From: a virus
Lineage: Duplodnaviria > Caudoviricetes
DNA length: 64,000 nt
IMG/VR virus record: IMGVR_UViG_3300050509_000509
Span: 1 to 64,000 of that record
Direction: 5' to 3' (one strand)
Shown: piece after piece, positions 2 to 60,726 of the stretch
Position numbering within the stretch: position 1 is the stretch's first letter
How the letters are laid out: the number at the start of each line of letters is the position of its first letter
Notes under the pieces: generated by a model
What the model was told of the DNA's origin: nothing
Seen by the model: only the letters and a program-made list of their open reading frames with translations
Databases searched by the model: none
Made by a program: the position numbers and the translations under genes

Positions 2-631
2 GAGCCTGCATTTATACAAGTTGTCACCAGAAAGTTTGACAGTGCTGAGTTGGCCTACTGGAATCATTACCACATCTCAGAGAGAGAGCTGAGAGAAAAT
101 GAGATCTATGCTATAAAGCGCCTGTATGTAGACAGATTACTCGTAGGCTATACACCAGGTACGCTACAGTTTGGATATCTCTTTGAGGACAAATGGAAGA
201 TCTATAGACCAGAGCAGCCAAAGGACAGGAAATGGATCAGCAATGTACCTAATGACTACATGAGTGGAATGCAGCGTATTACATCAGGCTGCAATGTAGC
301 TGTAGTAACAAAGAGCAAAAAGGACGAACTAGTGCTTGCTAAAATACTACCTCATGTATGCAGTGTGCAAAGTGAAAGTATTGTCTCTATCAACAACCAT
401 AATATCCGTCTTCTCAGAGAAAGGTGCGGAAAGGTATTCGTAAACTTTGACAGTGACAAAGTAGGTGTGCAGGCTTGTACTTACTACAACCAGTTCGGAT
501 TTGGATGGGTGAACTGTCCATGGGGATACCAGAAGCCCAACCAGGAGTGGATAAAGGACTTTGCAGATCTGGCCAGATACTATGGAATGGATGAGGTAAT
601 CAAACACTTTAAGTTGAAGGGTATCATATGA
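2..631 (+). CDS. DNA primase, C-terminal TOPRIM part (5' truncated by window edge)
   Basis: Frame is open from position 2. TOPRIM-like VTKSKKD, FDSD (DxD) and KDFAD motifs, in a replication-arm context. Confidence 0.75.
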   Translation, partial: EPAFIQVVTRKFDSAELAYWNHYHISERELRENEIYAIKRLYVDRLLVGYTPGTLQFGYLFEDKWKIYRPEQPKDRKWISNVPNDYMSGMQRITSGCNVAVVTKSKKDELVLAKILPHVCSVQSESIVSINNHNIRLLRERCGKVFVNFDSDKVGVQACTYYNQFGFGWVNCPWGYQKPNQEWIKDFADLARYYGMDEVIKHFKLKGII

Positions 632-1398
632 ACTACGAAAAAGTAGCACCATTCTTGGGGGATTGGGCCCTCAAATTCAGACCATTTATAGAATCGGAGA
701 AGTTCGATGAGATATTTGCATTCCTTAAACAGCAATCGAGAAAGCCCCCTGAGGGAGAGGGGAAAGTCATATGCCCCGCATGGCACGATACGTTCAGGGC
801 TTTTAAGGAATGCTCATACAATGCGTTAAGAGTAATCTTTATTTTACAGGATCCTTACCCATGGATTAAGGATGAAAAGTTTGTCGCTGATGGTATGGCA
901 ATGAGTTGTTCCAACACTGGAATGTGCCAGCCATCACTTAGTACCTTTTATGACGGAATGGAAGATGATTTAGGAGAGGATGTACCGCACATGCCAGATC
1001 TTTCCTACCTTGCACAACAGGGAGTTCTTCTGCTTAATACAAGCCTTACAGTAGAGCTTAATAAACCCACTTCACACAAGGGTTTATGGGATGGGTTTAT
1101 GGACTATATGATCCAAGAGGTTATAAACTTCTATAATCATGGGCTTATTTATGTATCTTTTGGAAAGAATGCTCATATCACTGCCAAGGCTATAGTACCT
1201 TTTCTGCACTGGGGGTTTGAGGTAGAACATCCTGCAGCAGCAGCCAGAGCGGAAAGGAAGTGGGAACACCAGAATATCTTCACCAAGATCAACAGGATCT
1301 TGCACGATTGTAACAACGAACAGATAAACTGGATTTATGGACAGACTGCATCAACACCTCCAATCTCTGGACGTAGAAAGAGAGAAGAACGAAGCTGA
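628..1398 (+). CDS. ung: Uracil-DNA glycosylase, family 1-like
   Basis: LQDPYP (canonical GQDPYH), ADGMAMS, QGVLLLNTSLTV, SHKGLW, HPAA (canonical HPSP). Confidence 0.9.
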   Translation: MNYEKVAPFLGDWALKFRPFIESEKFDEIFAFLKQQSRKPPEGEGKVICPAWHDTFRAFKECSYNALRVIFILQDPYPWIKDEKFVADGMAMSCSNTGMCQPSLSTFYDGMEDDLGEDVPHMPDLSYLAQQGVLLLNTSLTVELNKPTSHKGLWDGFMDYMIQEVINFYNHGLIYVSFGKNAHITAKAIVPFLHWGFEVEHPAAAARAERKWEHQNIFTKINRILHDCNNEQINWIYGQTASTPPISGRRKREERS

Positions 1399-2601: not shown

Positions 2602-3807
2602 ATGGCAATACTAAAGTTATCAGAAAAGAAACAGCAGATAGTCGAGAAGGCCATTAACCGTTTGGTTGAGAAGACAAATATGAATGTGTATAGGACGATC
2701 AAGAAAAAGCTTGTAATGACCTTTGGCGAAGACAACGTACAAATTGCTAAAATGGACGAAGAAAACATCTGTCGCAGGCTCAGAGAGTACGGATATAATG
2801 ATACTAACATTGTTGGGGCAGATGATAATGGATTTACTCAACGTGTTGACCAGATAGTCCATACATATCATGCTATCGTTAGAATCCCGGAGTTCACAAT
2901 AAAAAACAGTCGTGGAGGTAGTGTAACAATCCGGGATATGTTCGTACGCATACAACTGGCTCCGGACGGAAAACTTGCTCATGGAGGTCTGGAAGGAGTA
3001 GTTACTACCTTTACAAAGGCGCAGGCTCGCTATGGCTATATGCATTCCCATCTACTGGCCGTAGCTATTTCAAGAGGTAATCATCCAACATTTAATACAT
3101 TTTGTCTTGGCACAGGACAGATTAATCAGATAATAGCACTCTTACGAAGAGAGTTTAATGAGATAAACTTCCAAATGTTCTGTTTGCACATTAAGAACTT
3201 TCTGGAATGGGAATCCCTCGAAGGAAATCCATACTGCAGATTCGGAGATGTTCAGGAGACTGTAACTACTATTCCTATTAGTACAGTAGCATCACCATAC
3301 TTCATACTCGTCTCTGAGATGCTCAGGAAGGAATTCTATAAACTACCAACTGACAAATCCAAGGAGCTTATATCTATCCATCCTGACACATATGAAATCC
3401 ATGTAGAGCCGACAGAAGATCTGGAGAAATGGGCAGCTGATGCTATACTATCGAAACAGGGAGTTCTGATTGGAATGAATATAAATCCGAGCGATCTGCT
3501 GGCTGTTAAAGATAGTACTGGTATATATTATAAGTTCAGTCCTGACACAGGTAATTTGTCTGTCTCCAATAAAACAGTTCTTCATTTCAGAGGAGAGGAT
3601 ATAAAGATCAAAATAATTGATAACGAAAAAAACCTAAAAGGTACCAAATATGCGAACCCAAAGATCATCGAGCAACTATGCAAAAAGATCAGCGCAGACC
3701 TCACAACAACCGCGCTTGACTATGCGTACACTGGAAGCAACGATACCAGTGGAGATAAGCCAGAAGCTACAGTTACAAACCATGACCCTGTGCGGGAGGC
3801 TACCTAG
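2602..3807 (+). CDS. Putative prokaryotic E2-like (ubiquitin-conjugating fold) protein
   Basis: YMHSHL...FCLGTG (His upstream of a CLG-type Cys). Lies between the Ubl and JAB genes. Confidence 0.55.
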   Translation: MAILKLSEKKQQIVEKAINRLVEKTNMNVYRTIKKKLVMTFGEDNVQIAKMDEENICRRLREYGYNDTNIVGADDNGFTQRVDQIVHTYHAIVRIPEFTIKNSRGGSVTIRDMFVRIQLAPDGKLAHGGLEGVVTTFTKAQARYGYMHSHLLAVAISRGNHPTFNTFCLGTGQINQIIALLRREFNEINFQMFCLHIKNFLEWESLEGNPYCRFGDVQETVTTIPISTVASPYFILVSEMLRKEFYKLPTDKSKELISIHPDTYEIHVEPTEDLEKWAADAILSKQGVLIGMNINPSDLLAVKDSTGIYYKFSPDTGNLSVSNKTVLHFRGEDIKIKIIDNEKNLKGTKYANPKIIEQLCKKISADLTTTALDYAYTGSNDTSGDKPEATVTNHDPVREAT

Positions 3808-4870
3808 GGTTGAATGGTCTGGAACCCTATTTTATAGTGTGACAGGAGAGTTTGGAGAGCCAGATTTCGCTATAACAGCAGAAGAATTATATCTGCAGGA
3901 TATTGGAAGTGCTACTTATACAGAATATGAAACAGGAGATCCTGATTTCATCCAGTTCCTCATGCAAAGATCTGATCTTCGAGTAATGCGACAGGGCCAT
4001 ATCCACTCTCATAATTCCATGGGTAGTTTCTTCTCTGGGACAGATGATGATGAGCTTATTGAAAATTCCGAGTTTCACAACTATTACTTCTCTCTTATCG
4101 TGAATAATAAGAATGAGATGGTAGGTAAGGTGGCCTTCAGAGCACAGGTAGATTCAGAAACCAAAGCATCTATGATATTCAAAGGTACTGATGGTCAACC
4201 CAAAGAGAAACATATGACTACCAAGAATCAGACAACATATGTATATGCATATAACTGTGATATGGAAGTTCCTGAGGTAGTAAATCAGATAGAACAAGCT
4301 CTGGAAAAGCAAGAGGAAAAAGACGAGGCTCGCAGGGAGGCTAATAGAAAGAGCACCTACGGGAGTTATGGCACCTCTTATAATACCTCTACTTACAATG
4401 GTAGATTATTTGGTGGGCCTGAGGAAGAGGAAGAAACGCCGGTAATAAATATGCCATCAGAGTTTGGTGATAGTTCAGAAGAAGAAATACCAGAGACGAG
4501 AGCAGAAAAAAAAGGAGGCATCGCATGGAGAAGAAAACGCGCCAGTCGTCCACTCAACAGAAAAAGCGTGGACTTCCTGATAAAGCTGCTCAAAATGGAC
4601 AAAGGCGCAAATGGAAAAATCGAAGAAACTCTCGAAGAGGTCGTAGGTGATATATGGCGTGACAAAAAGAATGACGAATATTTCGCAGAGATATCTGATA
4701 AGTTACCTTACCTGTATATGGAAGTCTTCCCTAATGATCAGAAGCTCGATGGAATTGATGATACAATCTACGATTGTCTTGATCTCCTTGATCTGTATGA
4801 AGACAAGTATCCCAATTTCACTGAACGTATGATAGATGTATTCACCAAATACTTAACACCAACTGTATGA
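3650..4870 (+). CDS. JAB/MPN+ metalloprotease (deubiquitinase-like)
   Basis: VEWSG (catalytic Glu) and GHIHSHNSMGSFFSGTD match the JAMM motif HxH-x7-S-x2-D. Start could be 3650 or 3722. Confidence 0.85.
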   Translation: MRTQRSSSNYAKRSAQTSQQPRLTMRTLEATIPVEISQKLQLQTMTLCGRLPRVEWSGTLFYSVTGEFGEPDFAITAEELYLQDIGSATYTEYETGDPDFIQFLMQRSDLRVMRQGHIHSHNSMGSFFSGTDDDELIENSEFHNYYFSLIVNNKNEMVGKVAFRAQVDSETKASMIFKGTDGQPKEKHMTTKNQTTYVYAYNCDMEVPEVVNQIEQALEKQEEKDEARREANRKSTYGSYGTSYNTSTYNGRLFGGPEEEEETPVINMPSEFGDSSEEEIPETRAEKKGGIAWRRKRASRPLNRKSVDFLIKLLKMDKGANGKIEETLEEVVGDIWRDKKNDEYFAEISDKLPYLYMEVFPNDQKLDGIDDTIYDCLDLLDLYEDKYPNFTERMIDVFTKYLTPTV

Positions 4871-5568
4871 GCGAAGTAAAACCACAGTACAATAGAGTGA
4901 AGGGAGCAGAATGGTTTCCCAAATTGCACAAGAAGGAAGTTCTCGTCTTGGGGCAGGGTGGTATAGGCAGCTGGCTGAGTGTTATGCTGGCCCGTGTTGG
5001 CTGTAGCCTGCATACCTTCGATATGGATATTTATGAGGAGCATAACCTAACTGGTCAGATGGCCCGCAAAAAGGATATTGGGAAGAACAAAGCTGAAGCA
5101 ATTAAAGATTTGATTGCTGAGCTCTCTCCTGATACAGTCGTACATACCTATGGTGTATATGATGAAGCAGCAGTAGTGTCTGATATCACACTCTGTGGAT
5201 TCGATAACATGGATGCCAGGAAGCTGGCCTTTGCCAAATGGGAAGAATATGTTCTGGGACTCTCTGAGAGCAGAAGAAAGGAATGCTTCTTCCAGGATGG
5301 TAGGTTGTTAGCTGAGCAGATGCAGATCTTTAATATCCCTGGTGACAAACTTGAGATGATGCAGAAATATAAGGAAGAATGGTTATTTGATGATGAGCAG
5401 GCAGTCGAAGGAGACTGTACATTCAAGCAAACTTCTCATGCAGCAGCTATGATTGCTTCTCTGATGGTAAGTTTTACTACCAATTGGATAAGTGGGCCGC
5501 CCAGGAGAGTGCCATTCATGTATGAATATCTTATACCATTAAATTTAGCAACAAATGACAACGCTTGA
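4867..5568 (+). CDS. ThiF/MoeB/E1-family adenylyltransferase
   Basis: VLGQGGIGSW nucleotide-binding loop, DMDIYEEHNLTGQ, GKNKAEA, CGFDNMDAR, candidate catalytic Cys in CTFKQT. Confidence 0.9.
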   Translation: MSEVKPQYNRVKGAEWFPKLHKKEVLVLGQGGIGSWLSVMLARVGCSLHTFDMDIYEEHNLTGQMARKKDIGKNKAEAIKDLIAELSPDTVVHTYGVYDEAAVVSDITLCGFDNMDARKLAFAKWEEYVLGLSESRRKECFFQDGRLLAEQMQIFNIPGDKLEMMQKYKEEWLFDDEQAVEGDCTFKQTSHAAAMIASLMVSFTTNWISGPPRRVPFMYEYLIPLNLATNDNA

Positions 5569-6278: not shown

Positions 6279-6737
6279 ATGGCTTTAGACCCACTTCCCA
6301 AAAAGAGGGCTTCAAACTACTCGCGCAGTAAAGGCAATCGTACGGAATATGAATATATAGACAAGTTCAAAGAGCTTGGCTATCCAATGTGTAAAAGCAG
6401 CAGACTCGCATCGAGGCTTCTGGACAATTGTGGCATAGATCTCTCAGGAATTCCTTTCAATGTACAGGTAAAAGGAGGATATAGGAAAAACTTCACACGT
6501 CCGGATAGGATATTCGCGAAAATGAAGGCTGACCTGGCAGGCTCGTTCGACACGAGGGATCCTGTACATAACTATCCAAAAATACTCATCCAGAAACTAG
6601 ATGGGTACCATGCCGAAAATCAGTTGGTGACTATGATGTGGTGCGATTTTGTCAAGCTGATAGAAGCATATGTTAAATGCAAAAACTTACCAGATGTGCC
6701 AAAAGATCAAACACCAGACAACATTTCACGCTTATAA
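6279..6737 (+). CDS. Hjc-like Holliday junction resolvase (PD-(D/E)xK)
   Basis: RSKGNRTE...GIDL...FNVQVK pattern. Confidence 0.65.
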   Translation: MALDPLPKKRASNYSRSKGNRTEYEYIDKFKELGYPMCKSSRLASRLLDNCGIDLSGIPFNVQVKGGYRKNFTRPDRIFAKMKADLAGSFDTRDPVHNYPKILIQKLDGYHAENQLVTMMWCDFVKLIEAYVKCKNLPDVPKDQTPDNISRL

Positions 6738-6866
6738 GCATTTGAAATACCTATTGATCCACAAAAGCAGGCAATGTAAGAAAGCAGGAATTTATTATTG
6801 TAGTGATTGTGAAAGCTACCACGTTACCTGTCATCCAGGCGATGACTGCAAAATCATTTTTAAACC

Positions 6867-7079
6867 ATGACAAAAGTTGTTATTGAAGTAAGAGGAGGGG
6901 TTGTAATTGGAGTGTATGCTTCCTCTCCTATTGAATATACAGTTGTAGACTGGGATTCAGAAAACCCAGAAGATATTAGAGTGCTTGAGGCAGATGCAGT
7001 TAGGAATGATATGCACGGAATTTTTGCGAAGATAGGAGAAACAGAAATAGCAGAAAGTTTAAAACTGAACGAATTCTAA
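6867..7079 (+). CDS. Small hypothetical protein
   Basis: 70-aa ORF (VVIEVRGGVV...VVDWD), coupled to the next gene by a TAATG overlap. Confidence 0.6.
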   Translation: MTKVVIEVRGGVVIGVYASSPIEYTVVDWDSENPEDIRVLEADAVRNDMHGIFAKIGETEIAESLKLNEF

Positions 7080-7279
7080 TGAGCTTTAAAGTGTATGTAG
7101 CACCTGATCGCCAGTCAGCTGAGCACATAGAAGAGCATGGATTCTCAGAGGTGACAGATAGAGATATACAAATTGATATATACGAATTTGATACAATAGA
7201 AGAAGCAAGAGCTTTTTGCAAAGGAATAGACTATGGGGCAGGATGGGCTCAACCTTATTATGAAATCAAATCTTCATGA
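7079..7279 (+). CDS. Small hypothetical protein
   Basis: 66-aa ORF with start/stop overlaps on both sides. Confidence 0.6.
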   Translation: MSFKVYVAPDRQSAEHIEEHGFSEVTDRDIQIDIYEFDTIEEARAFCKGIDYGAGWAQPYYEIKSS

Positions 7280-8355
7280 CAGAGCGGGAATACAGGGCAC
7301 TTGAGATTGATTCCTATTCAACCCTCAAGGACTTCCTGGAAGACAGGAAGAAATATTACAAGAAATATATATTGAAAGAGCCAGTAAAGGAAGAAGAATC
7401 TCCCTACCTGGTATTTGGGAATGTGGTAGACTGTTTACAGTTCACCCCTTCCCTGTTTGAGGAGAAATTTGCAGTGGCAGTCACTCAGGTCCCTACCGGA
7501 CAGTATGGGAAATTTGTTGATGAGATGGTAAAGATTACCTTTTCATGCCTCTCTGAGAGAGGAGAAGTGACTATGCATATTGAGGATATTATTACTGAGG
7601 CGTATAATAGATGTAAGTTCGATAGAAATGGAAATGTTGTTGATTTTAAGCGTGATAGTTTAGAAGTGGCGACTCAGAAATTTTTGGGCACTGAATTGGA
7701 GATGTATTACCGACAGAGAAGAGAAGCTTTTGGAAAGACGATTATTGAAGCCTCTATGTTGGAGAATGCCCAACGTGTTGTGGCAGAACTTATGAGCAAT
7801 GATGTGACCAAGTATATCATGACCCTGGAAACGGATCGAGATACTGTAGCTGTATATAATCAATTTCCTATTATAGGAAAGATGGATGGCGCAATGATAG
7901 GAGGATCAGATTTTCCTCTGAAGTGCCTGATTGATAAACTGGTTATTGATCACAAGCTAAGAAGTATTTATATCTATGATCTAAAAACAGCCTGGGACAA
8001 CGAAGGTGAGTTCCTGCACAATTATTTCAAGTACAAGTATTACATCCAGATGGCAGTGTATTTCTACCTGGTGGTGGAATGGAAGCTCAGCCAGCCGGAG
8101 ATCGCAGATTACCAGGTTCATTATCCTTCTTTCATCGTGGCAGATAGTTCGAATTACAAGAACCCGCTGATTTATGCCACGACCCAGGAGAATTTTCATC
8201 AAGGAATGCGGGGGTTTACTATAAGAGGTAAGTATTACCCAGGTGTTATTAAGGCAGTTCAGGATTTAATATGGCACGAAGAGACAGGAATTTGGAGCAT
8301 CAGTAAGGACAACCACACTGCAGGAGGAATTGTACGTATTCAGCCTTTTCAGTAA
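7276..8355 (+). CDS. PD-(D/E)xK exonuclease (RecE/DUF3799/Cas4-like superfamily)
   Basis: SYSTLK, FGNVVD, KCLIDKL...IYDLKT...YKYYIQMAVY motifs. Confidence 0.8.
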   Translation: MTEREYRALEIDSYSTLKDFLEDRKKYYKKYILKEPVKEEESPYLVFGNVVDCLQFTPSLFEEKFAVAVTQVPTGQYGKFVDEMVKITFSCLSERGEVTMHIEDIITEAYNRCKFDRNGNVVDFKRDSLEVATQKFLGTELEMYYRQRREAFGKTIIEASMLENAQRVVAELMSNDVTKYIMTLETDRDTVAVYNQFPIIGKMDGAMIGGSDFPLKCLIDKLVIDHKLRSIYIYDLKTAWDNEGEFLHNYFKYKYYIQMAVYFYLVVEWKLSQPEIADYQVHYPSFIVADSSNYKNPLIYATTQENFHQGMRGFTIRGKYYPGVIKAVQDLIWHEETGIWSISKDNHTAGGIVRIQPFQ

Positions 8356-11111: not shown

Positions 11112-11312
11112 ATGACAATTAAAGAGTTTGCCACCCAATGGGGCCTAGATGAAAGAACGTTGCTGTATCTCAGAGATACCCAGCGCCGACTCTCAGAGGA
11201 GTGGATAGATGGGTCGGAGTACGAAGAATACCTGATGATGTGCGGCCTGACTATGGGCTCTATTGTAAGTAAACTGTCTATCACAGATATAGATATACTT
11301 GAAAATACATGA
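11112..11312 (+). CDS. Small hypothetical protein
   Basis: 66-aa ORF, tightly packed. Confidence 0.55.
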   Translation: MTIKEFATQWGLDERTLLYLRDTQRRLSEEWIDGSEYEEYLMMCGLTMGSIVSKLSITDIDILENT

Positions 11313-14903: not shown

Positions 14904-14907
14904 ATAT

Positions 14908-17226: not shown

Positions 17227-17239
17227 ATAAAATTTCTGC

Positions 17240-45205: not shown

Positions 45206-45209
45206 TTCT

Positions 45210-50540: not shown

Positions 50541-50545
50541 TGGTA

Positions 50546-53500
50546 TTACTTGTAAGAGATCATAGTCTCTGTTAAAATGAATTGAGATGTAAGTCGTACA
50601 TCTGACCTGTTATCAAGAATATGCCTTATCCGACAGTCCTTTGCTCTCAATGGATATTTCCTGAAACTGCGCACAGAATAATCCATATTGTCGTCATTAA
50701 GCACTTTGTCATCTGATAGGTTCTCGCATTGTGTCAGCCAGATAGGTTCTCCATAATCACGCACCACATCCCATAACCCATTGTAATTGTAGAAGTTATC
50801 TGACTTTACTACCAGGATATCTACCCCATTACCGTTAATGCGCGGATATTGCAGATAAGATAATAAATTATTCTTGGGTTTGAATATCAGATTTCTCATC
50901 CCTGTACATTGCTGATCGTTCGATATAATTGCCTTATTAAAGTATATATCATTGGTCTGCACAAAGCTTTGTGCATTTGTTATCCTGTTGACTTTAGTAT
51001 AATCTTTCACACTCTGCAGGATTTCATCTTGCGCGTTATAATGAAATGGGTAGTCCAATATATAAGCATGTATATCGCCATAAAAGTTATTGAAACCAGT
51101 GTCTGTGGTATCATGTAACCATACAGAATTTCCATTCGGATTGTTGCTATAGAATCTGCTTATATCCTGGATATAGAAATTTGGTAGGTAACTATGGAAA
51201 GAAACCCACATCTTCATCGGGATCCAGTAGGAAAGAGTGAAGCTGGTACTGCAGAACATCGTTGGATCAGTAAGCGATACTTCTGCCCCATTCAGAGTAA
51301 ATATGTCCAGTTCACTATCGTAAACAATGGCACTGTTGAGTGGTCTATAATCCAGTTTCGTGATAATGATTCTGTCGTAGTAATTGTCGTATACACCATG
51401 CAGACCTATGCCTTTAAAATGATTATCTATACTATAATTCGGGAATGCCTTCTGTATCTGGAAAGGTAGGTTGTTGGTCAGAAACTTGCTCACACCCTCA
51501 TTTCCGATATTCTCCAGACTCTGTCCGCCTATCATAAATACCTGTCCACGCTTGGCATCAATAGTGAAGTGCCCATATTCCGTTTTGAGCAGGAATTTAT
51601 GTTGTGTGCCAGCGTATCCTGTATCCGTCTCAGCGAAGTCCACAGGTGGAACATTGCTGTTGAACAGAGATTGTCCAAGATAAACATCTCCTATAGACGA
51701 AGCTGCAGTCAATAATGCATTGTACAACTGCATTTTGTTCTCAAAACGTGCAAGTACCTGCCTTGTCTCCAGCCCATCCAGAGAGATTAGTCGTCCATAG
51801 TTCAATGGAAAGTCGAAGAACGCAGCTGGTCTATATATGAGCCAGTTGTTCCTGAAGTAGTTTACTACGTCTGACTGCCTCTCAGAGAAGATTGCTTTGT
51901 TAGGGAACATATGTCTGCAATCCTCACCAGGAACAAAATCAACGGGAAGTGTGCTGAATACATTTTCTGTGTTTTGCTTTGAAAAAGTCTTGTTGTATGT
52001 ATAGGTATTGTCCTGAACGATAGGAACAAATGACTCCTGTAACCAGTCATCAGGGACATCTGTACCTACATGTGGATAGAAATCTCCTTCACGCGCATTA
52101 GTTGCCTGCCTGTAATCCACATTCACCTGGCTTTCCACATAGAAGTTTACTATACCATAAGCGAATAGGTAGATCTTACCTGCATCATAGAAGAAAGCAC
52201 TGTTTTCACAATCAAAGTTGTTTACTTTGACACCAAACAGGCTTCCTATGCCAAATCCTCCACCATCTCCACGCCTGATATCTGTAGAGAACCAGTACCT
52301 GGGAAACCCGATGTTTCCGAGCTCATCATAGAAGACATCACTTTCATCCGGGAAACCAACCCTATTGTCAATAAAGAAGGGTATTTTTCTCTTGAATGCG
52401 AATTTGTTAATGAAGGTATCTCCGCCAAATACATCTTTGAAATGGGGACCTGTGAAGTCGGCAGATACATCTATAAGGAACTGATATCCTGTGTCAATGG
52501 CATCATACGAATAAATCTGGCCGTATTGATCTGGGGAAGGAACCTTGATAGAACCGTAATAAGATGATATATCACGGTTGTAAAACCTATTTTGGCATCC
52601 TACTTCTCCGAGAGTGAAGCGTGAATTATCCTGGGGAATACCAGGTATGGAATCGGGGTAGGGTAAAGGAGCAGTTGTCCTTAGGTAAACTGAGGATTCA
52701 CGCTGATAATTATTTACAATGTTCTCATCCCCTACACCCTGCAGACCAGGTGCCAAATATGCTGCAATATCTAATCTGCGGATTTTGTTGCCTGTATCAT
52801 TAGGCAAAGTGGTAGTTTCTGTATAGTTACCTACCGAATTGAACTGGTAGGCCATATTCTTTTTGGGCAACAATTTGAAGATGATATCTTCCAGTATGGT
52901 AAATGCAGTGAATGCCGCTGCTCCATCAAAAGGTTGGTTGGACACACCATACATACCTGATGCAAATCCTATAGCTATACCTACTGCCAGTGCAGTAAGG
53001 TATGATTCCAGTGAAGGAAATCTATACTTGGAGTGATCCTTTACCTGCACAAAATGCGAACGTGTACTGCCGTATTCTACTGTTTCTATTTTGAGCACAG
53101 TACCCAGGAACGGCTGAAAGAATGATGTATCGGGGCTATGGAAGGTATACCGCATCCCACTGGCCGTCTCAGAGAAGCCATCAAGAAGATGGCTGCCTAC
53201 CGGAAGGCGTGGGGCAGCCACATAGGTTACTTCTGCACTGTTGCCAGTTATTTCACCATCTACAGCAGTACCAGGAGTTGGGAAATCATATACTTGTGCT
53301 GTTAGTACCAGTGTATGATCAATGGAAAAATCCACACCATTGACAAAGCTGTCAAACGATACAAATCTTGGAACTCCGCCCAGAATTTGCAACGTCGTAT
53401 GTGTATCTATACGTGAAGAGTTAGTGCGCTTTAAATTAGTAACCAGTATCCAGGAATTTGTGTTGTCTACTGTCAGTTGTCCTGTGTCGTATATCACTGT

Positions 53501-55453
53501 CGAATCGAAGTACACACGAAGACGCTTCTTCGTAGTGGTACCACCAAATGTTCCTCTATAAGTACCTACCACCTTATCATTATCGACGGTAAGTGTATCT
53601 AATGGAATAGTTCCTTCGTATAGGATTGTCTCAGATATACCAACACTCTGAGAAGATTCAAATGAACCAAAGAGCTGCTGACTCAACATTCCAGTAGCCG
53701 AATTACTGATAAAAGGATCCGGCCTCAGATCATTGAAGGGGTAATTGGGATAGAAATATTCAGTTCCTTCTTTTGCATATTGTCCGACATTGAAAAGCAA
53801 TCCTTTTGCAATAACGGACTTTGCATTAGCACGATTGGCCCTTACTACTTTCACCGCAGCAATATTGTTCTTCTGATCTTCGGTTAGATTAGACGACCTG
53901 ATAGCCTCATAAAGAGTTTGCATATCAATACGTAGACCCAATGGATATACATTCCCTCCATCATCGTGATGATTAGTAATTGCGTTATCAGGATACTTGA
54001 AATGGCGAATGGGTCGTCCCTGGAGATCTCCCCATACCGGCTCATTGCAGGGGTATGTCTCAGTAGATTGCCAGAAGGAGAACTCACCAAACTGGTAAGG
54101 ACCCTGATAGCATGGATCGTCCGGATCATATGCAGGATCTATACCTGTAACACTGGCTGTATTGTATACTTCCCAACGCTGTTTAGGCTCAGGTTCTTCA
54201 CAAACATTTCCGTCCTGTACTACATCTGCATTATCCACAATTACCAGATCTGAGGCAAGTGGTGCTCTTCCAACCAATGGGAATCTATCTGTCTGGTGAC
54301 CATTTCTCAGGATGAACACAAGATCATAAGCATATACTTCATCTCTCATATATCCTCTGAGACCGGCTGCATTCAGTTCGTTTTTATATTGTTCCTGATC
54401 TGGCGGCAACTTCCAGCTTACCCATTGCAGTTTTACTTTACTGGCAATATCCTGGTAGTTGAGCCGCTCGGTTGTAGTCATGCCTTTGAATACCAGTATA
54501 TCATTCACTGTAGTAAGGTCATCTGCTGTATCGTAGGAAGGAAAGCGTTCGAAAATATCGTTTATACTAAGTGTTATACCTGCTTTCGACTGACCTGTGT
54601 ATACGATGTTCTGTACAGGACCTTGTATAGGAAATGTCCCAACCAGATCAACAGATGGAATACTGTTGATTGTTTTGATCACTGCTATGTTGAAGAACTC
54701 GTATAAACCTGTTGTATCAATATTGCTGATGAGAAGTTCTATAGATTTACCTACTTGGTAATTGAAATCAGGAGTAACTTTCAGCGGATCGAATATAGGT
54801 AATGGATTAGTGATAGAATAATACGATGTATATGGATCTCCCAATGAGCTTGCATACTGAAATGCGAACTGATAACTGCCAGCAGTGAGAGTACCATCCG
54901 ATTCCACATCCGTATAGCTTACCTGAGGAATAAAGAACTCAGGCATCACACGCATTTTATTACAATCTATCTCCGCAGAAGTATTATTCTCACAACCTTC
55001 CAACCTTTCAACGAATGGAAGATTATCCAAATCTATATAGCGCATAGGATTAAATCCATCTGTCCAATAGATTTCAGTAGAACAGTTTGTAATCTTGTGA
55101 ACTGCCTTCATGATCGGATAGTTCAGATTGAAGTTCAAGCAGTCCGCATTGATCACTGTTGAGTAGGTACAATCAATAACTCTACCTATCTCAGAGAGGG
55201 ATGAGGTAGGATTGGCGAGGAAAAGGATTTTGATGTTCTTCTCAACTATATTATGTGTGCCGATTACTCTATATCCATCAGGAATATCAAAGCAGAACGA
55301 ATTCTGAGTTTCATTCTGGTAAGTAATAGCATTGCCATCAAAAGCCGATATCATTGCATTCTTGGCATAGGCCAGCTGACCAGGCTTGATCTGGGCAGTG
55401 ATTGAATCCAGGTTCAAACCCAGATAGGCATTGTTAGGTCTTATTTGACTCAT
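50546..55453 (-). CDS. Tail stabilization/muzzle protein (crAss-type, P22 gp10-like position)
   Basis: 1635 aa beta-rich; YWTDG.NP.R, GYMRDEVY, GGDTFI, WVSFHSYLP; sits between ring genes and cargo genes. Confidence 0.7.
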   Translation of the reverse strand: MSQIRPNNAYLGLNLDSITAQIKPGQLAYAKNAMISAFDGNAITYQNETQNSFCFDIPDGYRVIGTHNIVEKNIKILFLANPTSSLSEIGRVIDCTYSTVINADCLNFNLNYPIMKAVHKITNCSTEIYWTDGFNPMRYIDLDNLPFVERLEGCENNTSAEIDCNKMRVMPEFFIPQVSYTDVESDGTLTAGSYQFAFQYASSLGDPYTSYYSITNPLPIFDPLKVTPDFNYQVGKSIELLISNIDTTGLYEFFNIAVIKTINSIPSVDLVGTFPIQGPVQNIVYTGQSKAGITLSINDIFERFPSYDTADDLTTVNDILVFKGMTTTERLNYQDIASKVKLQWVSWKLPPDQEQYKNELNAAGLRGYMRDEVYAYDLVFILRNGHQTDRFPLVGRAPLASDLVIVDNADVVQDGNVCEEPEPKQRWEVYNTASVTGIDPAYDPDDPCYQGPYQFGEFSFWQSTETYPCNEPVWGDLQGRPIRHFKYPDNAITNHHDDGGNVYPLGLRIDMQTLYEAIRSSNLTEDQKNNIAAVKVVRANRANAKSVIAKGLLFNVGQYAKEGTEYFYPNYPFNDLRPDPFISNSATGMLSQQLFGSFESSQSVGISETILYEGTIPLDTLTVDNDKVVGTYRGTFGGTTTKKRLRVYFDSTVIYDTGQLTVDNTNSWILVTNLKRTNSSRIDTHTTLQILGGVPRFVSFDSFVNGVDFSIDHTLVLTAQVYDFPTPGTAVDGEITGNSAEVTYVAAPRLPVGSHLLDGFSETASGMRYTFHSPDTSFFQPFLGTVLKIETVEYGSTRSHFVQVKDHSKYRFPSLESYLTALAVGIAIGFASGMYGVSNQPFDGAAAFTAFTILEDIIFKLLPKKNMAYQFNSVGNYTETTTLPNDTGNKIRRLDIAAYLAPGLQGVGDENIVNNYQRESSVYLRTTAPLPYPDSIPGIPQDNSRFTLGEVGCQNRFYNRDISSYYGSIKVPSPDQYGQIYSYDAIDTGYQFLIDVSADFTGPHFKDVFGGDTFINKFAFKRKIPFFIDNRVGFPDESDVFYDELGNIGFPRYWFSTDIRRGDGGGFGIGSLFGVKVNNFDCENSAFFYDAGKIYLFAYGIVNFYVESQVNVDYRQATNAREGDFYPHVGTDVPDDWLQESFVPIVQDNTYTYNKTFSKQNTENVFSTLPVDFVPGEDCRHMFPNKAIFSERQSDVVNYFRNNWLIYRPAAFFDFPLNYGRLISLDGLETRQVLARFENKMQLYNALLTAASSIGDVYLGQSLFNSNVPPVDFAETDTGYAGTQHKFLLKTEYGHFTIDAKRGQVFMIGGQSLENIGNEGVSKFLTNNLPFQIQKAFPNYSIDNHFKGIGLHGVYDNYYDRIIITKLDYRPLNSAIVYDSELDIFTLNGAEVSLTDPTMFCSTSFTLSYWIPMKMWVSFHSYLPNFYIQDISRFYSNNPNGNSVWLHDTTDTGFNNFYGDIHAYILDYPFHYNAQDEILQSVKDYTKVNRITNAQSFVQTNDIYFNKAIISNDQQCTGMRNLIFKPKNNLLSYLQYPRINGNGVDILVVKSDNFYNYNGLWDVVRDYGEPIWLTQCENLSDDKVLNDDNMDYSVRSFRKYPLRAKDCRIRHILDNRSDVRLTSQFILTETMISYK

Positions 55454-56382
55454 AATCTATCATTATACCCCCAGCTACTGGAAGGCCAACCAGTTGCGCC
55501 TCTCCATCTCCACGCATTCCCATACATCATTCTTTCATAAGGATTGAACCTGTTCTGATCCCTGCGAATACCGTATGCCTTACGATAGATGGTTTCTTTT
55601 TTAATTTCAGTATCTGCTATAATATAGGCTTCATCAGCCATTTGCTTATACATCTGATATTTGAGCTGCATCTGGTTGAAAGTCTCATCAGTGATTTGGT
55701 TGGATAACATTTCAAAGACTTTCTGCTTAATGAATGCCTCAATGAATTCCTGTATCCTGTAGTTGTCAGGTATCATTGGACATCCTGCCGCATCCACGTT
55801 CTGACCATAATATACCAGGTATATATCTCCGAGCCTGAAATTTGTCACGAATTTCCCATCCCTGATATCAAATACATCCGGGCAGTTTGCACCATAGTTC
55901 AGACAAGGAAGATCACAGTGTTCTCTTGCTGCGATGTTGCCTGGTCTGAGCAGATATTTAAGACTTACAGGGAAGGCTATATTAGTCGTTGTTTTAGCAA
56001 CTACAGTTATAATATCCGGGTTGCATGGATCGCAGTTTACAACCGGATTACATGCATCATAGGGTTTATTCAATACTGTTGTGATCTGCTGATAAAAAGC
56101 ACCAGGCTTCCTCATCTCCAGTGGAAAGGAGGTGGCTGTTAACCAGGCTTCCCTCACCGCTATAAAATCAGGTGGCAACTTTGCCTCAAATGTGTCCATG
56201 AATAATAGAGTCTGCTGAATCGGTAAGGAAGATCTACCCAACTTCTGCAAGCACTTCTTAGTCCAAACTGGAAACATAAGATCATCTACAGCTCCTGTAT
56301 CAAAATAGCTTTTCAGTTCTTCCTTTACGCGAGCATAAAGGTTATCAGGAGATTCAAATTTGTATTGATAGTAATAAGACAT
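55450..56382 (-). CDS. Tail ring/tubular adaptor protein
   Basis: AKLPPDF and PMIPD motifs; synteny with the crAss tail module. Confidence 0.55.
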   Translation of the reverse strand: MSYYYQYKFESPDNLYARVKEELKSYFDTGAVDDLMFPVWTKKCLQKLGRSSLPIQQTLLFMDTFEAKLPPDFIAVREAWLTATSFPLEMRKPGAFYQQITTVLNKPYDACNPVVNCDPCNPDIITVVAKTTTNIAFPVSLKYLLRPGNIAAREHCDLPCLNYGANCPDVFDIRDGKFVTNFRLGDIYLVYYGQNVDAAGCPMIPDNYRIQEFIEAFIKQKVFEMLSNQITDETFNQMQLKYQMYKQMADEAYIIADTEIKKETIYRKAYGIRRDQNRFNPYERMMYGNAWRWRGATGWPSSSWGYNDRL

Positions 56383-56864
56383 TATCTACGTTTCCATTGT
56401 TTATAAATGTCGATGTACTTAGGATCATTTGCTACATTCCCTATTGCACGGGAAGTATCGCGAGCAGGCTTGAACACCCATATAGATGCCTGGGGTAGTT
56501 TTGATTCCTGCACAAACCAGTACCAGTGATATACATACCCGTTAGTGTGTAGATTCAAATGATACACACGCTTTCCAAGTGCTTTAGATCGGGCCCAGTC
56601 TATAGGTAGCATCATTCTTTCTACCCCATCCCGGCACTTAACCATTCTACGTGCTTTCTTCTTGGATACAGCCAAAGGTCCTATTCCCCACGGAAGTTTA
56701 ACCTTATCTCCTGTCGCAACCAGGTAATCTCTATAACCCAGATTGTAAGCTTTTAATACTGCCTTCCATTCTTTATAACCTATTGTCAGTTCTGGATGAC
56801 GTGCACAGAACTTCTCATATACACTTTTCGACGAGCACGAATAATCAACTCTTTGTCTTGGCAT
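56382..56864 (-). CDS. IHF/HU-like DNA-binding protein (crAss-type)
   Basis: GDKVKLPWGIGPLAV, IDWARSK, HLNLHTNGY, FKPAR; basic. Confidence 0.6.
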   Translation of the reverse strand: MPRQRVDYSCSSKSVYEKFCARHPELTIGYKEWKAVLKAYNLGYRDYLVATGDKVKLPWGIGPLAVSKKKARRMVKCRDGVERMMLPIDWARSKALGKRVYHLNLHTNGYVYHWYWFVQESKLPQASIWVFKPARDTSRAIGNVANDPKYIDIYKQWKRR

Positions 56865-56867
56865 ATC

Positions 56868-57563
56868 TTATTGTTTGTTTACCTGGTCATCCTTGTTATC
56901 ACTGGTGTGGTCTACCGGAATACGGAAATATGTTTTCAGAAGTGTATCGAGGGTATCCTTTACAACTGCCTCTTCCAAATAACCTGGGCATTTGAATTCA
57001 TCGTCGAGCGGATTAATACATGGATTTCTCCTGGTAGCTATGCACTCACACTCAGGATAAAGCAATTCATCTGGTATATCTTCCTCGAAATATGCCCATA
57101 TATTTACTATACGTACATAAGGAGATGAAACATACAGATATCTGTCATATACCCAGTAATATGTATCCTTTTTTGGCAATCCTAACTTTAACAAGTTGAT
57201 ATAGCGCGATAAGGTAACCTCTTTCAATCTCTGAGAGGTGTCCACAGAGAATACACCATGGATAAGCAGGCCATATATCCCATCAGATATCTTGGGTAGT
57301 CTGAACCTACTCCTTGCTATTTTCTGATCTGACTCATAATCACAACATTCGGCCATGGAAACTTCTTTCATCTCCACACATGGAATGTTGGTAAATATGG
57401 TAGATGTTTGCCAAAGCCTTCTGCGATCTGCTTGTTGCTTGATAAAAAGGATAGCTCGACTCTTCAATTCTGCCGCAATAACGCGATCTGTAATTGAATT
57501 GTCCGAATTCAATAGCTTGTCCAGTGATCTCACTCTTGATACAACTTGTCTGACTGTTGACAT
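56868..57563 (-). CDS. Tail ring protein
   Basis: 231 aa, YYWVYDRYLY, C..LDDEF.CP motif; synteny with the crAss tail module. Confidence 0.55.
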   Translation of the reverse strand: MSTVRQVVSRVRSLDKLLNSDNSITDRVIAAELKSRAILFIKQQADRRRLWQTSTIFTNIPCVEMKEVSMAECCDYESDQKIARSRFRLPKISDGIYGLLIHGVFSVDTSQRLKEVTLSRYINLLKLGLPKKDTYYWVYDRYLYVSSPYVRIVNIWAYFEEDIPDELLYPECECIATRRNPCINPLDDEFKCPGYLEEAVVKDTLDTLLKTYFRIPVDHTSDNKDDQVNKQ

Positions 57564-57897: not shown

Positions 57898-59313
57898 TTA
57901 TGGTGTGAATGTAATTTGCACAAAATCTGCACCTGTAAAAGTTTGCGGATCAAATGTCTCAGTTGCTCCAGCTACCACAATTGTATCTACCGGCGAGCCG
58001 TTAATCAGTAGTGTAAGTGTTGCACCAGCGCCTCCTGTGAGATCTACAGCAATAGACATACTCGTTTCATCTCCATGGGTACCCACCAGGTTCTGACCAT
58101 TTGATAATGGGAAAGATCCTCCTGTTGGTACATAAAAAGCAGGAGTTACATCATCTATAGTAGATCCTGCAACTGAATTAGCTACCTGAAAGTTGAATGT
58201 TGTTGTGGTAGTCGTTGTAGTAGTACTTGTAGTACTTGTTGTTGTACTGGTCGTAGTAGTGGTTGTAGTTGTAGTAGTTGTAGTTGTACAAGGTATAGTC
58301 TCTGTAGTAAGAACCTGTCTGCAAAAAGCAGGTCCTTCACATAGAACTAATGAATAGTCAGTAGGGCACTCATACCCTATACCACCTGATCCTACCTGTA
58401 CATCTTCGCCGATATAATCCTTGGTAGAGAATATCAACCCCGAGCCCATTGATGCATAGGAAGTGGCAGCTTGCAACTGCGCAGAAGTGAGATTGTATAT
58501 CTCCGCTCCCATAGCAGCAACAGAGCTTACGTTATGTCCAATGATTTCTATCACATGATCTCCTGCAGCAAGCGAAACAGGGTAGATATGCCATAACTTA
58601 AAGGCAAGATCCACACCTATACCTGGAAAGCCATGTGTATTGAAATAGGCTGCCATTGCTGTAGGATCCATCTCTACAACAGTATTGCCATCAATACGAA
58701 TGATGGACAGATTATCTGCACCCGTTCCTACATAATAAGTAGCATTGGCAGGAACTGTTACACATACCGAAAAGCCTACGTCCTGGTTAGATACTGTAGT
58801 AGTTGCCCATAACCCTGCTCGATTCAATGGTCCATCTACCAGTGTACTACTACCATTAATCCAAAAGGAATTGCCAGTACTAATCTGTGTATAGGTACCA
58901 AATCCCTGTACATCATATCCTGGATCGTAGATCAGTGTTCCAAATTGCCCGTAATTTGTGTTATTCTGTTCTACAGTCGCCTCAGGAGAACTGGGTGGGG
59001 TTGCTGTAGTTTCGTTAATCTGAAAACAATATGTACCGTCCTCTGAGAGGGTGTACGATGGTGGGCAGCATTCGCCCCCTGCTGTGAATATTTGAAATGT
59101 TGTAGAGCGGGGACCGCATGCAATTCCATTAGTAGTAAGCCTTACATCATAGGTAACATTTTCCTCTATTTCCAGTACATAACTGTTGGTAATAGTAGGA
59201 TTGTTCGGGCTTGTTGGAGTGATCCAATCAGGATCTCCCTGAACACGATATTCTACCAGCGTACTTAATGAGCCTGGCACAAAATTCCATGTTATCGTCG
59301 CGAATGCACTCAT
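57898..59313 (-). CDS. Fn3-like, Cys-rich virion protein with internal poly-Thr tract
   Basis: N-terminal Fn3-like domain, CPPSY/CPTDY motifs, 30-residue T/S tract at 58198-58287. Confidence 0.7.
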   Translation of the reverse strand: MSAFATITWNFVPGSLSTLVEYRVQGDPDWITPTSPNNPTITNSYVLEIEENVTYDVRLTTNGIACGPRSTTFQIFTAGGECCPPSYTLSEDGTYCFQINETTATPPSSPEATVEQNNTNYGQFGTLIYDPGYDVQGFGTYTQISTGNSFWINGSSTLVDGPLNRAGLWATTTVSNQDVGFSVCVTVPANATYYVGTGADNLSIIRIDGNTVVEMDPTAMAAYFNTHGFPGIGVDLAFKLWHIYPVSLAAGDHVIEIIGHNVSSVAAMGAEIYNLTSAQLQAATSYASMGSGLIFSTKDYIGEDVQVGSGGIGYECPTDYSLVLCEGPAFCRQVLTTETIPCTTTTTTTTTTTTTSTTTSTTSTTTTTTTTTFNFQVANSVAGSTIDDVTPAFYVPTGGSFPLSNGQNLVGTHGDETSMSIAVDLTGGAGATLTLLINGSPVDTIVVAGATETFDPQTFTGADFVQITFTP

Positions 59314-60726
59314 TTATGGGGTTGTAGTAGTAGTTGTGGTTGTTGAAGTAGTTGTAGTAGTGGTTCCACCTGGTGTATATATTACCTGTACATTACTCGG
59401 CGCATCACATGGAGAAGGACATCCTGCTACAGCGGAGCAAAATGCCTGATATAAACCTGTATCTGTCTGCAATGCATCAATCAATGATTGAAATAGTGTA
59501 ACCGCATTTACTCCTACGTTGAGTACAACTACTTCATTGGTGGTATCTACTGATGGTATTACCTGAATACCATTGGTGACCCCACCTGCTGTGATCTTGG
59601 CTCCCAGATAATCCGGGCTGCCATCTGTTCCATCTACGGCTACTTTATGATCTCCTGTTCCTGATCCACCTGTGCTATTTATTATCACAGAGTCAGGGAT
59701 AGTCAGGAAGTCAAATGTTATATTGGTTCCTGGGACAACTTTATCCTGGAATACACCAGGAGACATATCTGATGCTGTTACAGCAAATAATCTGTCTGCA
59801 TTCACCAATGGAGCAAGCTCAACATTCTTACCCAGACACAGATTCCCGTTACTTACATTACTTATAGTAAAGTCTCCTGACCACTGGGTAGGCAATGCCT
59901 GAGCAATAGCTGTGACCCGGGTGAGTATATTCTGTAGTGTATCTTGCAGGTTCTGTGCGCCCGATGGTTGCGTTACACAACCCCAGGTGAGCGTAGTAGT
60001 ATCCAGAGTACCAGTCTGACAAAGTCTTGTCTTGATTTTGTTGACAGTATCTACCAATGTGTCACTGGCCGTGAGCGGTGCAGGCAAACAACTTCCTATA
60101 TTATTGAAAGTTGGGAGTACAGCTCCTGCATCGACAGCTGTTTTCAGCAGGCATATCTGGTCAATGAGTATATTGAATCCTTCCTCTGGAGTATCCGGAG
60201 CAGGACTAACTACATAACAGCTGCTCCAGTCTGCTGCAGATACATCGAGCAGCGCATCTATAGCACCGAACTTAGTACAGTAAGCATTCAGCACTTGCTG
60301 TAGGGTCATTCCTGATGTTACACTTGCAGTAGCACACGTAATACCTGGCACTTCCAGGGCATCCAGCCTTCCATCAATAGTAGTCTGGTAAGCAGGGAAG
60401 GTAGTATCTACGAATGTATCGAACTCATCTCTGAGATCGCACACAAAGGCGGAGATGGATTCAACAAATTCCTGCTGTGTGGAGATAGGCGCAAGACAGA
60501 ATGTATTATACTGCGAGTAATCTCCTGTTGATGCACACAGTAATGGATCTATCTTCTGCAAGATTGTCTGTAGGTCATCATTAGTCTCAATACCTGAGCA
60601 TTCAAGGGCAGGTCCTGTATATATTACACAGGCTGCATCAAGTGCGCAGGGAGTAGTGCTGGTGCAGTTAGCTGGAACAAATCCAGTTACTGTAGCAGTT
60701 GTTTGTATGCAATTTGTACAGGCCAT
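59314..60726 (-). CDS. Cys-rich tail/fibre protein ending T6-S-T8-P
   Basis: Repeated LQxxL helical modules with Cys; T/S tail at 59320-59364. Confidence 0.7.
   Translation of the reverse strand: MACTNCIQTTATVTGFVPANCTSTTPCALDAACVIYTGPALECSGIETNDDLQTILQKIDPLLCASTGDYSQYNTFCLAPISTQQEFVESISAFVCDLRDEFDTFVDTTFPAYQTTIDGRLDALEVPGITCATASVTSGMTLQQVLNAYCTKFGAIDALLDVSAADWSSCYVVSPAPDTPEEGFNILIDQICLLKTAVDAGAVLPTFNNIGSCLPAPLTASDTLVDTVNKIKTRLCQTGTLDTTTLTWGCVTQPSGAQNLQDTLQNILTRVTAIAQALPTQWSGDFTISNVSNGNLCLGKNVELAPLVNADRLFAVTASDMSPGVFQDKVVPGTNITFDFLTIPDSVIINSTGGSGTGDHKVAVDGTDGSPDYLGAKITAGGVTNGIQVIPSVDTTNEVVVLNVGVNAVTLFQSLIDALQTDTGLYQAFCSAVAGCPSPCDAPSNVQVIYTPGGTTTTTTSTTTTTTTTP

Follow-up and report, generated by a model that had tools for sequence, protein, structure and literature searches.

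The window analysed here spans positions 1 to 64,000 of a 73,811-bp IMG/VR viral record (IMGVR_UViG_3300050509_000509; G000, hereafter the contig), for which CheckV estimates a completeness of 59%, and our subject is a nine-base palindrome that recurs throughout its genes. These genes fall into two arms in the window, a short plus-strand arm (position 1 to about 11,860) followed by a long minus-strand arm. The plus arm encodes UDG-like, ThiF/E1-like, PD-(D/E)XK exonuclease and RecA proteins, together with a small PD-(D/E)XK nuclease and a small HNH protein. The end of the minus arm encodes the large terminase subunit (TerL), the portal and the major capsid protein (MCP), with PHROG matches at 9.5e-50, 4.8e-92 and 8.4e-37, respectively; the same arm also holds a protein matching Pfam CrAss_Ring_1 (5.5e-12) and five giant open reading frames (ORFs) of 885–4150 amino acids. 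The contig thereby carries the Crassvirales structural block of TerL, portal, MCP, ring protein and giant virion proteins. In tblastn searches, its portal matched named crAss-like phages with 20–25% of residues identical, and Leptolyngbya phage Lbo-JY46 with 29%. The contig is a partial genome of a divergent, uncultured soil crAss-like phage. It is collinear with a complete record of 126,034 bp (G001), with the portal 69% and the MCP 91% identical, and the part absent from the contig matches G001 37.2–89.2 kb (about 50 kb). Scans of IMG/VR and of metagenome contigs with the portal and MCP recovered many relatives, the best at 75% portal identity, and protein homologues 81–88% identical exist on other contigs, one of which, 123 kb long, carries an 81%-identical homologue (P0257) of the protein at 9332–9790.

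A palindrome spread through the coding sequence

The original prediction listed 35 copies of TCTCWGAGA in the window, and exactly 35 are present, each at the start it gave. Across 100 dinucleotide-preserving shuffles of the window, the word averaged 1.08 copies (standard deviation 1.08, maximum 4), and none of the 100 reached 35. Over the whole record, 39 copies stand against a single copy of the reversed control word, a 25-fold excess over the third-order Markov expectation (39 vs 1.54). The sites are real, yet the definition was slightly narrow: since TCTCSGAGA is also in excess (7 copies vs 0.54 expected), the centre takes C or G as well, and the true word is TCTCNGAGA. In this form it occupies 46 sites in the contig, 41 of them in the window, at a density of about one per 1.6 kb. 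Its outer eight positions are strict, their single-base variants occurring 0–9 times vs 0.5–2 expected, near background. The symmetrised flanks are graded, with C at 40–48% at positions −1 to −4, G at 4% at −1, and purines mirroring this pattern downstream. The site is thus a strict 4-N-4 core inside a pyrimidine-run/purine-run palindrome. Many one-mismatch copies had also been predicted, and 83 matches within one mismatch occur in the window vs 23.2±5.1 in shuffles, including all those named (near 9013, 28491, 41090, 42960 and 59040). Among the 48 one-mismatch matches, 7 overlap exact sites in a shifted register and a further 6 correspond to the sites with a C or G centre.

The sites, given here without strand, lie along the whole window. 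The TCTCAGAGA form occurs at 75–83 (in the ORF at 2–631), 412–420, 9972–9980 (in recA), 11168–11176, 12989–12997, 14002–14010, 15676–15684, 33339–33347, 34383–34391, 40223–40231, 47120–47128, 50208–50216, 51880–51888, 53167–53175 and 55189–55197. The copy at 11168–11176 is the core of a perfect 15-bp palindrome, GTATCTCAGAGATAC, at 11165–11179, as had been predicted. The TCTCTGAGA form is found at 3311–3319, 5261–5269 (in the ThiF gene), 7550–7558, 11417–11425 (in the HNH gene), 15894–15902, 16336–16344, 18079–18087, 19416–19424, 22735–22743, 26124–26132, 29737–29745, 30913–30921, 37102–37110, 39079–39087, 41356–41364, 44304–44312, 45289–45297, 48622–48630, 57228–57236 and 60428–60436. Sites with centre S (TCTCCGAGA) lie at 25554–25562, 27030–27038, 33700–33708, 45751–45759, 52605–52613 and 63669–63677. 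Outside the window, five further TCTCNGAGA sites are located at contig positions 66782, 68680, 70156, 70392 and 71597.

All 46 sites lie in ORFs, at relative positions from 0.05 to 0.99 and, as had been claimed, in different reading frames (9, 15 and 22 in frames 0, 1 and 2) and within many different peptides. A coding or compositional artefact, in which a favoured peptide, codon pair or repeat family makes the word, is a fair suspicion in this clade, where the weaker, frame-biased palindromes of distant relatives show that such coding effects exist. For the window it is refuted. We ran 300 synonymous-codon shuffles, which permute codons within each gene and keep every protein and each gene's codon usage, and obtained 2.24±1.41 copies (maximum 7) vs the 39 observed, a 17-fold excess; whole-codon permutation gave 0.78±0.83 vs 39. 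Together with the use of three frames and many peptides, and with flanking sequences that are not repeated among the copies, these shuffles leave the artefact a next-to-nil probability and uphold the earlier statement that the sites are not explained by protein coding. The prediction had named a shuffle preserving codons and dipeptides as a refutation; in its codon-preserving form, it did not reproduce the count. The word could be encoded in 69 peptide contexts, and 39 of them contain it.

The spread of the sites is even, again as predicted: for the 35 TCTCWGAGA sites of the window the mean gap is 1775 bp, the largest 3613 bp and the coefficient of variation (CV) of the gaps 0.51, and none of 20,000 random placements was as even. 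The 46 contig sites give a gap CV of 0.58 vs 0.97±0.13 for random placement (P=1e-4) and a largest gap of 3319 bp vs a simulated mean of 6908 (P=1e-4). The prediction had also named assembly-junction artefacts as a possible source of the motif. The sites do not stem from assembly: over 41231–57000 the window is matched without a difference by a Logan contig of run X1, which may be the source sample, and low-depth pieces from run X3, another sample, are identical across the sites at 45289 and 48622. The phage is present in rhizosphere viromes (runs X1–X3). Run X4 yielded only short conserved parts of relatives, and no diverged strain was found in runs X3 and X4.

Two local readings of the word were rejected. 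A hairpin or cruciform with a 4-bp stem and a 1-nt loop cannot form, and a promoter role was set aside on account of the sites lying inside ORFs. The accessible text of the phi14:2 study reports that early transcripts share no upstream motif and that middle promoters are sigma-70-like (10.1101/2020.03.07.982082). In the literature searched, apart from supplementary files, which were outside reach, neither TCTCNGAGA nor TCTCWGAGA was among the matches listed and no such lattice was described in crAss-like phages; the string 'palindrom' is absent from the crAss papers PMC10136315 and PMC7886860.

Words of related lineages

In G001 and four other relatives, TCTCNGAGA occurs only 1–4 times each (G001: 3), equal to the control word. 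An unbiased word scan of G001 instead recovered 155 copies of a different palindrome, CCCNNNGGG, vs 5 in the contig and 4 in the relative G002. The make-up of this word is dominated by CCCYNRGGG (104 of 155), with CCCTNAGGG accounting for 45 of 155. Within coding sequence, 140 copies stand against 22.6±4.4 in synonymous shuffles, with 37, 63 and 40 in the three frames, and the spacing CV is 0.79 vs 0.99±0.08 at random (P=0.001). The same word recurs in two further records, G407 (139 copies in 124,983 bp) and G408 (31 in 37 kb).

G001 and G407 share about 75% nucleotide identity over 92 kb aligned, and site conservation between related phages, a check proposed for the motif, was assessed on this sister word. 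The CCCNNNGGG sites of G001 are retained in G407 at 52 of 112 aligned positions, and 52 of 105 are retained in the reverse direction, about twice the rate of control palindromes: other 3-N3-3 palindromes are retained from G001 to G407 in 387 of 1701 cases, and the background chance that all six specified positions match is 0.21 (binomial P=3e-8). Half of the CCCNNNGGG sites have turned over between the two genomes and the totals are still 155 vs 139, the pattern expected if selection acts on number and coverage and not on fixed places. Collectively, the CCCNNNGGG sites of the sister lineage are under purifying selection with turnover.

Protein alignments allowed 36 of the 46 contig sites to be mapped to G001, the other ten lacking an orthologue or a gene model or falling in unaligned stretches. 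Four of these 36 mapped sites are no more than 15 bp away from a G001 site, vs 3.6% under random placement. The portal peptide FSPRE is identical in both phages and is encoded as TCTCCGAGA in the contig and CCCCAAGGG in G001, using synonymous codons. In the ThiF gene, L-S-E in the contig corresponds to L-P-E-G in G001, each matching its own word; the G001 codons orthologous to the site at 5261–5269 carry CCCGAGGG, 3 bp off. For the site at 16336–16344, the orthologous position in G001 has a CCCNNNGGG site 4 bp away.

The lineages differ in G+C content (42.7%, 40.3%/39.0% and 48.4%). The third lineage, at 48% G+C, favours TCCNGGA, with 18 copies in 4.9 kb at one locus (L124) vs 1.9 expected, and we count it only as a hint of a third lattice. 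The lineage words TCTCNGAGA, CCCNNNGGG (mostly CCCYNRGGG) and probably TCCNGGA have a common design, in which a free centre separates a pyrimidine run from the purine run that follows. More distant relatives contain weaker, frame-biased words such as TTCTNNAGAA, TCCTNNAGGA and AGGANNTCCT. There, TCCN7GGA lies wholly in one frame and TTCTNNAGAA has 8–9 of its 11–13 copies in one frame; these weaker palindromes were not counted as lattices. No comparable lattice was found in G002, crAss001, phi14:2 or Lbo-JY46. As a side observation, positions 20–100 kb of the record G412 (L209–L212; MCP 72%) show the TCTAGA-containing TCTATAGA 27 times vs 3.8 and TTCTNNAGAA 42 times vs 10.9, and G002 shows CTCTAGAG at 9 sites vs about 0.75; these weaker pyrimidine-run/purine-run palindromes may be faint versions of the same phenomenon.

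Proposed docking sites, candidate readers and competing explanations

We propose that the TCTCNGAGA copies are selected, cis-acting docking sites for a lineage-private, two-fold symmetric phage DNA-binding protein, and we put the chances of this at about even. Under this model, a homodimeric, sequence-specific protein would dock on the double-stranded sites. Selection would keep about one site per 1.6 kb genome-wide, preserving their number and even spread and not their exact places; synonymous codon choice, with amino-acid change where this is required, would fit the sites into genes; and the reader would co-evolve with them. The original prediction had already suggested binding sites for a dimeric protein, a part of it that agrees with a symmetric word whose core is sharp and whose pyrimidine/purine flanks are graded. 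The symmetry and the graded flanks are also the reason for positing a homodimeric binder of double-stranded DNA. Because the word is private to its lineage and has been switched between lineages, which implies co-evolution, the reader would most likely be phage-encoded, and because coverage is even, its role would be chromosome-wide, whether in organisation, loading or self-marking. The bound protein may mark and organise the whole phage chromosome by compacting or bridging it, or it may instead act as the platform on which replication, recombination or packaging is loaded. Docking could also distinguish the phage's own DNA from that of the host or of rivals. In a stronger form of this last idea, which we rate as improbable, the lattice would be a private self-mark, with a fast-evolving reader and its word co-evolving, switched at least twice (TCTC-N-GAGA, CCCY-N-RGGG, TCC-N-GGA), and letting packaging, recombination or a nuclease tell own DNA from that of the host or of co-infecting relatives. 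If so, a change of word would be an incompatibility barrier splitting phage lineages.

Crassvirales rank with the most abundant known phages, and little is understood of how they replicate, package their DNA and persist. In the clade described here, coding freedom, including amino-acid changes, is spent on keeping a short palindrome about every 1–2 kb. That sister lineages rewrote the whole genome for a different word is direct evidence of a strong genome-wide function at the DNA level, and the defined 9-bp sites offer an experimental handle against a short list of candidate proteins.

The first of these candidates, encoded at 9332–9790 on the plus strand beside recA, is a very basic protein of 152 amino acids (41 K/R vs 15 D/E over the long, 171-residue form of its ORF at 9275–9790). 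Its predicted homodimer scored 0.58 vs 0.00 for the best control, with runs agreeing on at least 97% of contacts and a partner predicted local distance difference test (pLDDT) value of at least 89. The benchmark mark was reached by 20 of 30 known one-chain pairs and 1 of 23 single chains, counts that are only a rough guide given that a seven-row alignment of our own was used. The predicted symmetric interface spans residues 3–55. In the ESM Atlas model, the C-terminal half resembles viral and bacterial DnaA C-terminal domains (domain IV helix-turn-helix) at a template modelling (TM) score of 0.53–0.60; DnaA domain IV is a helix-turn-helix that reads the 9-bp DnaA box. The C-terminal 70 residues are nearly invariant among relatives 65–84% identical. 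Homologue scans with the protein and its alignment found only homologues 34–36% identical, and G001 and G002 have none. Within the docking model, this protein has a minor though appreciable chance of being the reader.

HU/IHF-like proteins are possible readers of second choice. The original prediction had pointed to one of them, a basic, weakly HU/IHF-like protein of 160 amino acids encoded at 56382–56864 on the minus strand, in the crAss tail/virion gene block. The likeness is plausible and weak: the best PDB profile match is HU (5eka_A, E=0.17), over the GxKVxLxGFGxF region. Pfam Bac_DNA_binding gave no match at E≤0.05, and the G001 orthologue reached 16.5 bits (E=9.5e-4), below the 22.4-bit cut-off. 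The AlphaFold2 model, with a pLDDT of 53.7, is too low for a fold search. What ties this gene to the motif is only its fast divergence: it is 39% identical to its G001 orthologue vs 67–73% for the flanking genes, and it is further from G001 than the G002 copy is. A second HU-like paralogue is encoded in the genome part absent from the contig. In the accessible portion of PMC7886860, the family is annotated as an IHF subunit in crAss-like phages, with DNA compaction suggested, and is described as present in all of them. Its presence in crAss001, phi14:2 and G002, all without a lattice, counts against this reader.

Several other genes were considered as readers. The DUF559/Vsr-like PD-(D/E)XK endonuclease gene at 16735–17226 on the minus strand is a homing-endonuclease-like insertion; it sits between two genes that are directly adjacent in G001 and is absent from both G001 and G407, each of which bears a lattice. 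The ThiF/JAB block at 2602–5568 had suggested a specificity determinant through its 33–35% identity to G001 vs 72% between G001 and G407; it combines a JAMM/JAB motif with an E1-like ThiF and also occurs in the lattice-free crAss001, and it was rejected as reader. Among syntenic genes specific to each phage, 13433–14191 encodes a membrane protein, the G001 gene in the 9275–9790 slot is a MazG-like dGTP diphosphohydrolase, and neither pair is similar.

A number of observations weigh against the docking model. All of the reader proteins named are candidates, and docking is itself deduced from sequence patterns. For two helix-turn-helix domains, a site of 9 bp with arms of 4 bp is short, and it looks more like a restriction or modification target. 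For the protein at 9332–9790, the DnaA-IV likeness is below the naming threshold and a lead only, and PF08299 gave no match at E≤1. Neither of the two loci with 34–36% homologues of it (L249 and L250) has the lattice, and G001 and G407 have a lattice and lack a homologue; a different reader must therefore be assumed there. Only 59% of the genome is in hand, and the true reader may be encoded in the absent part. In the third lineage, the record G409 holds 38 TCCNGGA where synonymous shuffles give 13.8±3.3, but a single frame accounts for 28 of these 38, and they are not evenly spaced (CV 1.05). Finally, the reader could be encoded by the host, which we hold to be unlikely.

A related proposal is that a host machine with a specificity that varies from one host species to the next, for example a Chi-like regulator of RecBCD/AddAB or a host nucleoid protein, reads the word and each phage lineage mirrors its own host. 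It draws on the words being private to lineages whose G+C content differs, as expected for different hosts, and on no phage reader having emerged among the genes of the complete G001; the phage also has its own recombination module of recA, PD-(D/E)XK exonuclease and HNH/NinG-like nuclease. However, Chi sites, which regulate RecBCD/AddAB, are asymmetric and over-represented in the host chromosome, whereas the word here is palindromic. The presence of the motif in the host genome had been put forward as a check, and none of 401 evenly drawn Bacteroidota genomes showed an excess, a phylum chosen from a weak hint that may not be that of the host. The maximum was 132 copies in 4.4 Mb and the top ratio to the control word 66:6, far below one per 1.6 kb. 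The sole, weak host hint is an 8.4-kb contig (L178; G006) in a Cytophagales metagenome-assembled genome, which ends in an MCP fragment 73% identical to the phage MCP; that assembled genome contains 81 copies of the word vs 102 of the control word. The pyrimidine-run/purine-run design common to the lineages is likewise not predicted by a host-read signal, and we regard this explanation as rather improbable.

The resemblance to modification targets raises the further possibility that the word is the target of a host or phage DNA methyltransferase and that very-short-patch-type biased repair converts near-cognate words, the excess being mutational drive. The word, with 6–8 specified bases, a free centre and a C-N-G core, does resemble type II modification targets, and Elhai's HIP1 model, in the part of PMC4390886 available, ties iterated palindromes to cognate methyltransferases and a repair system. 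The contig encodes the DUF559/Vsr-like endonuclease at 16735–17226 (E=1.4e-8), and of the 229 folded changes at sites that G001 and G407 do not share, most (148) are C/T. Against this, six-frame searches with PF00145, PF01555 and PF02086 (C5, N4/N6 and Dam-type) found no match for any of them in five records (G000, 59% complete; G001 and G407, complete and lattice-bearing; G409; and G002), while the control genomes matched. Gene-by-gene Pfam scans of the contig and of the G001 region absent from it also found no DNA methyltransferase, and no ORF has a DPPY-type motif. The HIP1-like methylation reading of the original prediction thus finds no enzyme in the contig or in two complete lattice-bearing relatives. 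In addition, G001 and G407 have lattices but lack the inserted DUF559 gene, a purely mutational process would not predict even spacing, and none of the 401 Bacteroidota genomes exceeds 132 copies (1 per 33 kb). We judge methylation-driven excess to be an unlikely source of the lattice.

Alternatively, the lattice could be a set of nuclease targets, with a small homodimeric phage nuclease cutting or nicking the sites and so starting recombination-dependent replication or resolving branched DNA before packaging. Short palindromes with 3–4-bp arms are typical of such nuclease dimers, and with evenly spaced sites every junction would be sure to have one close by. Two genes could supply the enzyme. 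The plus-strand gene at 6279–6737 encodes a PD-(D/E)XK-fold nuclease of 152 amino acids, Hjc/resolvase-like or restriction-enzyme-like; its model (pLDDT 92.7) has as nearest folds Hjc resolvases, tRNA-splicing endonucleases, the SPARDA nuclease and HincII (weak: E about 0.1, TM about 0.4), its profile gives a weak Hjc match (E about 1), and the PHROG match is annotated as a RusA-like resolvase (E=2.7e-4). By tblastn it is present in the contig and G001 and not in G002, the 20–100 kb part of G412, crAss001, phi14:2 or Lbo-JY46, which confines it, in this comparison, to the lineages bearing a lattice, and it is 86% identical between G001 and G407, which share a word, and 50% between G001 and the contig. 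The second gene, at 11309–11665 on the plus strand, encodes a small, fast-diverging HNH endonuclease 30% identical to its G001 orthologue, which matches Pfam HNH and NinG. Yet among 36 IMG/VR loci with a homologue of 6279–6737, a strong palindrome was found only at L213 (the G407 record) and none at the other 35, the fold matches are weak, the contig data show no nicks or ends at the sites, and Hjc-type resolvases have little sequence specificity. We consider a nuclease-target lattice distinctly unlikely. The parS-like loading suggested in the original prediction has no counterpart among these genes, ParB_N (PF02195) being found in none of the same five records.

Several neighbouring genes merit description in their own right. 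The three-gene module at 2602–5568 begins with a 401-residue protein, followed by a JAB/JAMM-motif protein (consensus GHIHSHN...FSGTD; a homologue is named RPN8/RPN11-like in one source) and a ThiF/E1-like protein; it resembles a ubiquitin-like conjugation or deconjugation set, and Bacteroides phage crAss001 has a copy at 30–38% identity. Just upstream, the protein at 1885–2553 has an extreme acidic tail, with a nine-Asp run followed by a D/E/Y-rich stretch (49 D/E in 222 residues); it matches phrog_15560 and may be a DNA mimic or anti-restriction protein. At 14325–14903, a protein with a run of about 50 threonines adjoins three glycosyltransferase-like genes and a catechol-O-methyltransferase-like gene (region 14325–19900), and a second Thr-rich protein, with a PKD domain, lies at 20236–21402. 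These Thr-rich proteins and the glycosyltransferase cluster are probably concerned with O-glycosylation of mucin-like virion or surface proteins, and Thr codons account for a second enriched word family, ACAACTAC/GTAGTTGT (26 vs 4.5 expected). The Methyltransf_24 gene of this cluster (15983–16699), the only S-adenosylmethionine methyltransferase, was rejected as a DNA methyltransferase; its motif pattern is one we take to be catechol-O-methyltransferase-like. In G001, the locus L058 encodes an Acb2/Tad1-hairpin-domain protein of the anti-CBASS/Thoeris sponge family (4822–5220), a cREC_REC domain protein (9360–9773) and a MazG-like dATP/dGTP diphosphohydrolase (6830–7396). The 37–89 kb region of G001 carries NAD-salvage genes (NAMPT/NAPRTase, PRPP synthetase-like) and a nucleoside 2-deoxyribosyltransferase-like gene, and enriched GGTTCGAATC-type words at 80.5–103 kb (L010) show that tRNA genes are arrayed upstream of its terminase gene.

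Comparison with known systems

Among described systems, the lattice would appear to work most like the arrays of 17-bp dyad repeats in Cluster O mycobacteriophages (Corndog and relatives). As set out in the accessible part of that work (PMC4351075), these arrays likewise consist of one invariant inverted repeat with a free centre, in more than 30 copies genome-wide and with no orientation bias; their authors liken them to stoperators, and function is not established there. According to the same part of that source, the Cluster O repeats are built as 7+3+7 bp, about a third lie inside genes with many intergenic, and they are denser at one end (PMC4351075). The lattice described here, in contrast, is 4+1+4 bp, intragenic at all 46 sites and evenly spread, and its word differs between sister lineages.

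Other systems share individual features. HIP1 (GCGATCGC) and the alternate cyanobacterial HIPs are also short, restriction-site-sized palindromes, hyper-abundant in genes and replaced in some lineages (Elhai 2015, PMC4390886, in the part available). HIPs, however, belong to cellular genomes and go with a cognate methyltransferase, whereas this lattice belongs to a phage, and searches of three genomes found no methyltransferase. The KorB/OB operators of IncP plasmid RK2 and the ParB/parS system resemble it as dispersed palindromes through which a dimer acts on the whole molecule. Their operator sites are 13–16 bp long and few, while here 8 bases are specified within a core of 9 bp, the flanks show no more than a graded preference and no ParB_N was found. 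Like Chi, the lattice words are short, lineage-specific, over-represented and dispersed; unlike Chi, they are palindromic, and no enriched genome was found among the 401 sampled. Cluster A stoperators are oriented with transcription and mostly intergenic. They too give a phage genome tens of repressor sites, spaced at roughly 2 kb, and are described as asymmetric in the portion of PMC4351075 available, whereas the sites here are palindromic and all in coding sequence. Relative to Cluster O and HIP1, what differs is the length of the site, the finding of no methyltransferase, the exclusively intragenic placement, and the switch of word between sister lineages.

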